A stretch of 13,700 bases of DNA from the IMG/VR virus record IMGVR_UViG_2603880148_000005, positions 1-13,700 of that record, one strand, 5' to 3'. Below the pieces are notes generated by a model, which was not told the origin of the DNA, did not search any database, and was given only the letters and a program-made list of their open reading frames with translations. Each line of letters begins with the position of its first letter. The stretch's first letter is position 1. The translations under genes and the position numbers were made by a program. Source of the stretch: a virus. Its lineage: Duplodnaviria; Heunggongvirae; Uroviricota; Caudoviricetes. Below are positions 7,099 to 7,785 of this stretch, one piece after another.

Positions 7099-7785
7099 TC
7101 ACTCCTTCTCTTCTTTTCCGTAGTGGAGTTGGCCAATTTTGATAAGAGGGCGTCCCTGAGATTTGCGGTGTAGATTGGTATCGCGCAGAGAATACACACA
7201 GCCACAATATTCCTGCTGATAGAATTTTTCGCGCTTGCTGATTTCAATCATACGGGACGAGCCGCCCTGCTTGCGCCAGTTATAATCCCAGTACACCATA
7301 CCCGGATAATGCGCAACAGCTCGCCGCCCACACTCGTTAACCTGCTGCATATTTTTCCAGCGTGAAATGCCCAGTGAACTGCTGATCACACTGAAACCAT
7401 TTTCAGCAGCGTACAACGCTGTCCGCTCAAAACGCATGTCAAAACACATGGTACAACGGATCCCCCTCTCAGGCTCCCATTCCATTCCTTTGGCACGTTC
7501 AAACCAGTTGTCGGTGTCGTAATCAGCATCGATAAACGGCACGCCGTGTTGTTCAGCAAAGCGAATATTTTCATCCTTACGAATTAAATACTCTTTCTGA
7601 GGATGAATGTTCGGGTTGTAGAAAAAGATGGTGTAGTCGATTCCCGAGGCCTGAAGCGCCTCCATCACTTCACCGGAACATGGAGCACAGCAAGAGTGCA
7701 GTAGTAGTTTGTTTGCCCCGTTTGGGAGTTCCAATTTAGGCCGTTTGAAATCAGCAATAGTCATAAATATTTTTATTGGGGTCAT
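7099..7785 (-). CDS. QueH-like (DUF208) protein, putative epoxyqueuosine reductase
   Basis: 228 aa with [38 protein letters not shown] and YCGCVYS, which I recognise as the conserved Cys-rich motifs of the QueH family. Flanked by 153-bp and 178-bp intergenic regions. No strong SD at either candidate ATG (7785 or 7764). Confidence 0.65.

Follow-up and report, generated by a model that had tools for sequence, protein, structure and literature searches.

A queH gene in lambdoid prophages of Escherichia coli: a candidate second epoxyqueuosine reductase beside QueG

Introduction

QueH (DUF208, PF02677) was reportedly defined as an epoxyqueuosine reductase by Zallot et al. in 2017. In the pathway concerned, QueA makes epoxyqueuosine (oQ) at position 34 of tRNA-Asp, tRNA-Asn, tRNA-His and tRNA-Tyr, after which either QueG or the unrelated QueH reduces oQ to queuosine (Q) (PMC5372724). 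QueG is among the cobamide-dependent enzymes of E. coli (PMC11841063), whereas QueH is a non-orthologous, cobamide-independent replacement of QueG (PMC5372724, PMC6461909). Here we describe a queH gene in a stretch of 13,700 nucleotides from a virus of the class Caudoviricetes (IMG/VR record IMGVR_UViG_2603880148_000005, positions 1 to 13,700), called the window below, in which an earlier note made from the sequence alone had pointed to a QueH-like gene carried as a moron by a prophage of E. coli.

The QueH of Thermotoga maritima (PDB entries 7lc5, 7lc7 and 9deu) shares with the prophage protein the family profile, the predicted fold and the Cys pattern, and the same chemistry is expected for both, i.e. 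conversion of oQ34 to Q34 without cobalamin. The two proteins are only ca. 30% identical, however, and Asp13 of the T. maritima enzyme is replaced by Cys in the prophage protein. The chromosomal queH genes of Enterobacterales are much closer (79-92% amino acid identity) and agree with the prophage gene in length and start, and in the presence of the same extended −10 element at the same distance. Where inspected, these chromosomal genes have metabolic or housekeeping flanks (purL, glrK, tmcA, a short-chain dehydrogenase/reductase (SDR) gene, a gene for a metallo-β-lactamase (MBL)-fold protein), whereas the prophage copy lies among phage genes. The QueH proteins treated in the literature replace QueG in specific bacteria (PMC5372724), whereas the prophage gene coexists with queG. 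QueG itself (b4166) performs the same reaction on the same tRNA substrates (PMC5372724), but it belongs to an unrelated, corrinoid-requiring family and is encoded by a core gene, unlike the queH gene, which is prophage cargo.

Phage-borne enzymes related to queuosine and 7-deazaguanine metabolism are likewise found in the DNA-modification clusters analysed by Hutinet et al. in 2019. These clusters centre on the DpdA transglycosylase and on preQ0 genes (FolE/QueD/QueE/QueC), whereas the prophage queH is a single gene of the tRNA pathway, and no homologs of QueA, QueG or QueH were found in the viruses analysed in that study (PMC6884629). With the morons and nin-region cargo of lambdoid phages (hok/sok, relBE, restriction-modification (R-M) pairs and methyltransferases) the queH gene shares the hot spot and the variability, and a promoter-like element before it may be a promoter of its own. 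It differs from these in encoding a housekeeping tRNA-modification enzyme instead of a toxin, defence or virulence function, and in that no flanking terminator was found. The enzyme is not mechanistically new and the gene already bears its name in RefSeq; what is unusual is the prophage vehicle and the coexistence with QueG. The earlier note knew of no description of QueH as cargo of lambdoid phages, and our literature search, which did not extend to the texts of Zallot 2017 and Miles 2011, found no paper on prophage queH, even though RefSeq names the gene in about 1000 genomes. One apparent match was rejected, since the hit was to the author name 'Quehenberger'.

Sequence and predicted structure of the QueH protein

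An open reading frame (ORF) without interruption spans positions 7099..7785 on the minus strand of the window, and its translation holds all four motifs quoted in the earlier note, YCGC among them. The coding sequence of queH is assigned to 7099..7764 (minus strand, 221 amino acids plus stop codon), because the ATG at 7764 is invariant across all six aligned prophage upstream regions, the equivalent Met (MT.ADFK...) is the start in the chromosomal orthologs, and the RefSeq start is identical. The alternative start ATG at 7785 was rejected; it is lost in a Rac-type allele (L012), which reads ATT at this position, followed by an in-frame TAA. According to the allele alignment and the ortholog starts, the in-frame 5′ extension (7765..7785, minus strand) is most likely an untranslated leader. 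The earlier note, which left the strand unstated, was thus right about the ORF at 7099-7785 but not about its start.

The assignment of this coding sequence draws on the Pfam profile, a match to a solved structure, the set of Cys residues, the predicted fold, the ratio of nonsynonymous to synonymous substitution rates (dN/dS, see below) and the RefSeq entry. The Pfam family PF02677 (QueH) is matched with E=1.1e-65 and 221.5 bits, the cut-off being 23.5, over positions 1-174 of the 175 in the model, which is the outcome that the earlier note had expected from a search with a profile hidden Markov model. The T. maritima QueH 7lc5 is found by phmmer with E=7.8e-22; structures of the T. maritima enzyme are the only ones solved among the relatives. 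RefSeq lists the protein as 'epoxyqueuosine reductase QueH' (WP_000150294.1, 221 amino acids). In PHROGs it belongs to phrog_3217, which is labelled 'unknown function' and has a profile that lacks the first 40 residues, starting at an internal Met (residue 41). Phage databases therefore hold truncated, unnamed models of a protein that is easily identified, and the locus exposes this gap in annotation.

Comparison with 79 representatives of clusters formed at 50% identity showed that the seven family-consensus Cys residues, arranged as CC..C, C..C and C.C, are all held by the window protein; each of the consensus residues examined is retained, so that none of the consensus Cys is lost. In the numbering of the 221-residue protein the seven are C25, C26, C29, C104, C107, C187 and C189, and they are invariant in 25 closer homologs. 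These Cys residues would serve the Fe-S cluster and the adjacent metal site of QueH, as reportedly assigned in the paper on 7LC5. Asp13 of T. maritima QueH aligns with Cys in 67 of 71 family representatives and in the window protein, where the residue is Cys29. The PDB holds T. maritima QueH mutants C9S and D13N at aligned positions; the solved enzyme is atypical at residue 13, the one that its depositors mutated (D13N, PDB 9dco).

An AlphaFold2 model of the window protein was obtained with a predicted local distance difference test score (pLDDT) of 73.1 and a predicted template modelling score (pTM) of 0.76. The five best Foldseek matches of this model in the PDB are all T. maritima QueH structures (7lc7, 7lc5, 9deu, 9d86 and 9dco), with E values of 4e-11 to 5e-10, target-normalised template modelling (TM) scores of 0.81-0.85 and root-mean-square deviations of 2.6-3.1 Å; for 7lc5, 7lc7 and 9deu the TM scores are 0.82-0.85. 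The next matches, LarE and TtuA, have adenine-nucleotide-hydrolase folds and are weaker by about six orders of magnitude (E about 1e-4). The window ORF is a genuine, intact and full-length member of the QueH/DUF208 family, and this assignment is beyond doubt. The profile match, the complete set of seven Cys residues and the agreement of the predicted fold with T. maritima QueH all bear out the family claim of the earlier note.

Distribution in E. coli and in phages

The queH gene was found in 995 of 5426 complete E. coli genomes (18%), where it is named 'epoxyqueuosine reductase QueH' throughout, and in 985 of these carriers the match covers 80% or more of the ORF. They include O157:H7, O103 and O7:K1 strains as well as E. 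coli B REL606, ATCC 11303, strain C and ATCC 8739, and the gene is also carried by E. albertii. Since queG is present in all 5426 genomes, and hence in each of the 995 carriers, the prophage queH is always an added, non-orthologous second enzyme beside QueG. The E. coli background with a cobalamin-dependent QueG that the earlier note assumed is therefore general. The usual pattern, in which QueH stands in for QueG, is not seen in E. coli; that pattern is a trait of distribution and not a defining property of the protein.

All Escherichia copies of queH examined lie in lambdoid prophages of the Rac/Qin type. An exact copy of the window gene occurs in E. coli JE86-ST05 (L001), in a complete prophage between ompW and tail genes. 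The gene follows the DUF977 gene in a lambdoid prophage in every context that was inspected (L001, L012, L013, L014, L017 and L018), and these contexts represent three integration sites, viz. ompW, the Rac site at trkG, and Qin. Among 80 IMG/VR loci, DUF977 is directly upstream of queH in 78. The Qin prophage of E. coli K-12 (L016) lacks queH and has relBE-ydfV-flxA at the corresponding place. The gene is accordingly a variable accessory gene, present in Rac-, Qin- and ompW-site prophages and absent from K-12 Qin, and because related prophages do without it, queH is dispensable for the phage. In REL606 (L017, 1620376-1621041) queH is intact within a decayed Qin prophage, in which the neighbouring DUF968 and methyltransferase genes are pseudogenes.

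Among 50,697 deposited phage genomes there is only one cultured carrier, the temperate, plaque-forming Escherichia phage HannyBb, with a copy that is 95% identical and annotated as 'hypothetical protein'. The other INPHARED matches, consisting of unannotated faecal 'Bacteriophage sp.' fragments and very large or odd records, were left out as evidence for carriage by phages.

The region in which queH lies carries various cargo, viz. hokD, relBE, R-M pairs and methyltransferase fragments. In some contexts a methyltransferase fragment or a small ORF on the opposite strand is located between DUF977 and queH. The fragment, which is short and a pseudogene in RefSeq, separates the two genes in Qin-type contexts and in phage HannyBb (L013, 7768-7953; L014, 7757-7942; L017, 4558-4743; HannyBb, L002, 7268-7474), and is another sign that the queH position is a hot spot for recombination and cargo.

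Origin and selection

The prophage protein shows 92% amino acid identity to QueH of Scandinavium, 91% to that of Kluyvera and 88-90% to that of Enterobacter, followed by Symbiopectobacterium (87%), Erwinia (86%), Providencia (83%) and Photorhabdus (79-80%). Non-prophage neighbours of queH were inspected directly for Scandinavium, Erwinia, Providencia, Photorhabdus, Ewingella, Gibbsiella, Sodalis and Proteus, whereas for Kluyvera and Enterobacter the chromosomal placing follows from the absence of the neighbour proteins of this prophage. The order is purL-queH-glrK in Erwinia, an SDR gene and an MBL-fold gene adjoin queH in Scandinavium, and tmcA is also among the flanking genes observed. Prophage neighbour genes are found beside queH in none of 79 loci from species outside Escherichia.

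A neighbour-joining tree, computed without bootstrap support, groups the four prophage alleles in a single clade within the Enterobacteriaceae, with Scandinavium as its sister. Because of this position, the tree fits a single capture of a chromosomal queH by a lambdoid phage. Pairwise comparison of the prophage alleles according to Nei and Gojobori gave dN/dS values of 0.045-0.065 at synonymous distances (dS) of 0.28-0.46, values that point to strong purifying selection during a long stay in prophages. In pairwise comparison the prophage proteins are 79-86% identical to chromosomal orthologs, and the orthologs are 78-83% identical among themselves. As the distance between the prophage protein and the orthologs does not exceed that among the orthologs, the alignments give no sign of a change in function.

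Copies in Sphingomonas, Stenotrophomonas, Pseudomonas and Neisseriaceae (L147-L185) still share 74-79% identity with the E. coli prophage QueH. This conservation of the QueH subfamily across classes suggests either very strong constraint or frequent horizontal transfer. A few records bear names that do not fit (Bacillus subtilis SK7B5, Candidatus Avacidaminococcus) and appear to be contaminated or mislabelled.

Expression signals

A candidate extended −10 element, TGCTACACT, was recognised by comparison of upstream regions at 7799..7807 on the minus strand (reading from 7807 to 7799), 34 nt ahead of the start codon at 7764. The block CTCTGATGCTACAC, which contains TGCTACACT, does not vary between the six prophage contexts, unlike the sequence further upstream. 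The same motif is found at the same distance before the chromosomal queH genes of Erwinia, Scandinavium (CTCTGATGCTACAAT), Kluyvera, Enterobacter and Symbiopectobacterium, the upstream regions of which are otherwise unalignable. Among 78 species loci, 21 have TGnTAnnnT between −75 and −15, compared with 3% of control windows, and the occurrences cluster at −37 to −45. From this conservation we infer that TGCTACACT may be the native queH promoter, carried into the phage together with the gene. A generic scan for the two hexamers of sigma-70 promoters found nothing above chance upstream of queH, and missed TGCTACACT. An Rfam scan of the window detected the tRNA and the sok remnant discussed below, and no riboswitch such as those for preQ1 or cobalamin.

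The description of queH as a moron is supported by this native-type promoter candidate. The reading of the earlier note gains in this respect, as queH is an accessory prophage gene with an extended −10 motif conserved in its chromosomal orthologs, but the terminator belonging to the description was not found.

Proposed role of the prophage enzyme

We propose that queH would have been captured once, with its native promoter, from the chromosome of a relative within the Enterobacteriaceae, the closest being Scandinavium, Kluyvera and Enterobacter. The recipient would have been a lambdoid phage of the Rac/Qin type, in which the gene would have come to lie at the start of the nin region, after the Ren-like/DUF977 gene. 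The encoded protein is predicted to be a cobalamin-independent iron-sulfur enzyme that converts oQ to Q at position 34 of tRNA-Asp, -Asn, -His and -Tyr. In a lysogen it would work beside the cobamide-dependent QueG of the host. E. coli has no de novo synthesis of cobalamin, and according to what is said to be a report from the 1980s it accumulates oQ in the absence of vitamin B12. Because QueG of E. coli depends on imported corrinoids, the prophage copy would free the last step of Q synthesis from the supply of B12. The substrate side, i.e. the presence of tgt and queA and thus of oQ-tRNA, is established for E. coli K-12 (PMC5372724).

We consider it probable that the prophage gene is a genuine captured queH that acts as a second, corrinoid-independent epoxyqueuosine reductase on host tRNA; we infer catalytic activity, expression in the uninduced lysogen and a B12-sparing benefit from sequence comparison. 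The chances appear about even for the further proposal that prophage queH is a lysogenic-conversion gene acting on tRNA modification of the host, such that carriers would finish Q without corrinoids whereas K-12-like strains would stall at oQ when B12 is lacking.

Several observations weigh against these proposals. A search with NCBIfam profiles gave no family match for the protein, so that the RefSeq name is not confirmed through that library. The confidence of the structural model is moderate (pLDDT 73), and such a model is unable to reveal metal sites. The promoter assignment is drawn from conservation of the motif, no −35 element was found for the candidate promoter, and there is no Shine-Dalgarno sequence before the ATG at 7764. 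On the minus strand between 6700 and 8400 no site resembling an intrinsic terminator was detected on either side of queH. The early-right operon runs on the strand of queH too, and the gene could therefore be expressed mainly on induction and less in the lysogen. Finally, deletion of queG left the growth of E. coli ΔmetE with cobalamin or pseudocobalamin unchanged (PMC11841063), and the fitness value of a back-up enzyme is therefore uncertain.

Part of these observations bears on a role in lytic growth, in which an active QueH would be produced by early-right transcription after induction and would mature Q-tRNA for translation of phage proteins. Because queH is on the strand of the early-right operon, read-through from this operon on induction is likely; the gene shares strand and position with the cro-O-P-ren...Q operon, no terminator-like site separates it from DUF977 or follows it, and the plaque-forming phage HannyBb has retained it. 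Against this stand the retention of a native-type promoter motif and the presence of intact queH, under purifying selection, in defective prophages that are unable to grow lytically, such as the Qin remnant of REL606. Moreover, the fraction NAU/(NAU+NAC) is 0.57 in prophage genes as compared to 0.53-0.64 in host genes, and as the two do not differ, a phage-specific need for decoding with Q is not apparent. Turnover of tRNA in a short lytic cycle would also leave little time for a modification enzyme to take effect. Service to the phage in lytic growth is on these grounds rather unlikely as the main role of the gene.

A neutral passenger, redundant with QueG and hitch-hiking in a recombination-prone region of lambdoid genomes, would agree with the universal presence of queG, with the restriction of queH to 18% of the genomes and its absence from K-12 Qin, with the cargo hot spot described above (hokD, relBE, R-M pairs, methyltransferase fragments), and with the unaffected growth of the ΔmetE strain after queG deletion (PMC11841063). 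A dN/dS of about 0.05 over dS values of up to 0.46 points, however, to long-term selection on the protein while it resided in prophages, and the ORF is covered to 80% or more in 985 of the 995 carriers and has remained intact where its neighbours decayed (REL606), which makes the passenger explanation quite improbable.

The possibility that the fold was recruited to another substrate, e.g. a 7-deazaguanine derivative in phage DNA or another epoxide, had been raised in the earlier note, and although phages are known to modify DNA with 7-deazaguanines (PMC6884629) and queH adjoins DNA methyltransferases and an R-M pair, we regard it as the most improbable of the explanations in view of the 88-92% identity to Enterobacteriaceae queH genes that lack prophage neighbours, the absence of excess divergence or faster evolution, the retention of all consensus residues examined, the variability of the R-M pair as a neighbour (19 of 80 loci, most having hokD), and the lack of any tgt/dpdA-like, QueC, QueD, QueE or QueF homolog among the ORFs of the window or the 60 annotated features of the corresponding 40-kb prophage stretch in JE86-ST05. 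The search for a transglycosylase gene suggested in the earlier note thus came out negative in these two sequences, and with it the idea of DNA modification through DpdA or preQ0 genes was rejected.

If the captured gene indeed acts as a second reductase on host tRNA, its product would be the first enzyme of the Q-specific branch to be encoded by a phage. Decoding at Asn, Asp, His and Tyr codons would then differ between strains, and carriers would gain in fitness in niches poor in B12. An active prophage enzyme would make the last step of Q synthesis strain-dependent, with K-12, the model strain for the pathway, relying on the B12-dependent QueG alone, and E. coli B, E. coli C, many clinical isolates and some O157:H7 strains holding a B12-independent back-up in a prophage. 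The gene may in this way release the step from B12 supply in about one in five E. coli strains, and K-12 strains are probably unlike B strains in how far their Q synthesis depends on B12. This bears on the comparison of tRNA-modification data across laboratory strains, and on the transfer of housekeeping, B12-sparing functions between gut bacteria by phages.

Prophage context and the hok/sok remnant

The window covers the immunity and replication genes and the nin region of a Rac/Qin-type lambdoid prophage. The plus strand encodes a repressor-like helix-turn-helix protein (11488-11988), a ParE-family toxin and a DUF1391 protein. On the minus strand the order is cro-like, YdaT, an O-like protein with a DnaT domain, P, DUF1627, DUF977 and queH, followed by a C5 methyltransferase, an NgoMIV-family endonuclease, a small ORF, DUF968, RusA, antiterminator Q, an N6/N4 methyltransferase and a tRNA. 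The gene for the DUF977 or Ren-like exclusion protein (7939..8349, minus strand; Pfam DUF977, E=1.8e-38; phrog_142) is the last of the replication block, and queH, downstream of it, sits at the start of the nin region. The earlier note described queH as standing alone between long intergenic regions. The non-coding flanks (7765-7938 and 6921-7098) are indeed moderately long, ca. 175 nt each, but the downstream one is not empty, as it contains the remnant of a hok/sok leader.

This remnant occupies 6927..7066 on the minus strand. It comprises a site resembling a hok-type promoter together with the 5′ portion of the hok leader with sok, as found by a promoter scan and with the Rfam model RF01794 (sok). 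The Rfam match scores 61 bits, the gathering score being 59, and only about the first 90 positions of the model align well. The promoter-like sequence TTGGCG-17-TAGAAT runs from 7066 to 7038, and a hairpin at about 7010-7031, which has no T run, is part of the hok leader. The stretch homologous to the hokD-bearing locus of JE86-ST05 ends at 6927, 7-13 nt before the ATG of the methyltransferase gene, and the hok ORF itself is missing from the window locus. Because the ORF is gone and the homology to the hokD locus breaks just before the methyltransferase start, half of a hok/sok addiction module is replaced here by a type II R-M pair, which lies behind the hok promoter and leader. The methylase may be driven by this promoter and leader, and its expression may possibly be sensitive to Sok. 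The R-M variant occurs in 19 of the 80 IMG/VR loci and in E. coli O157:H7 strain Z869, and hokD is found instead in 54 of the 80.

The R-M pair corresponds to the R-M-like island that the earlier note had placed next to queH. The C5 cytosine DNA methyltransferase gene, in place of hokD, is located at 5796..6920 (minus strand; Pfam DNA_methylase, E=4e-54), with a start at ATG 6920 or 6914. The NgoMIV-family type II restriction endonuclease is encoded at 4904..5782 (minus strand; Pfam NgoMIV_restric, E=1e-126). In strain Z869 (L018), which has the same arrangement, the respective genes are annotated as 'DNA cytosine methyltransferase' and, in RefSeq, 'NgoMIV family type II restriction endonuclease' (292 amino acids). 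The longest ORF for the endonuclease starts with TTG at 5917 and overlaps the methylase gene; the start equivalent to that in RefSeq is the ATG at 5782.

The phage tRNA noted earlier in the same prophage is present at 453..528 (minus strand) and has anticodon CAT; ARAGORN assigns it to Met and the Rfam tRNA model scores 72.5 bits. In JE86-ST05, where the stretch is 97% identical overall, RefSeq annotates the corresponding, near-identical tRNA as tRNA-Ile, which heads an Ile-Arg-Arg set like that of Stx-type phages, and the phage tRNA is probably a tRNA-Ile of the lysidine type. A tie between this tRNA and QueH was rejected, because a tRNA of the Ile/Met type with anticodon CAT is not a queuosine substrate.

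Two further observations concern the immunity and replication genes. A 63-amino acid ORF on the plus strand (12006-12197; phrog_3936, unknown function) has a stop codon that overlaps the start of the ParE-family toxin gene (12197-12487, plus strand; Pfam E=7e-18) by one base, and the segment 12006-12487 is likely a toxin-antitoxin pair beside the prophage repressor. The listed ORFs of the O-like (9608-10630) and P-like (9154-9816) proteins on the minus strand overlap by 209 nt, and the real start of P is therefore probably further downstream than that of the listed ORF.

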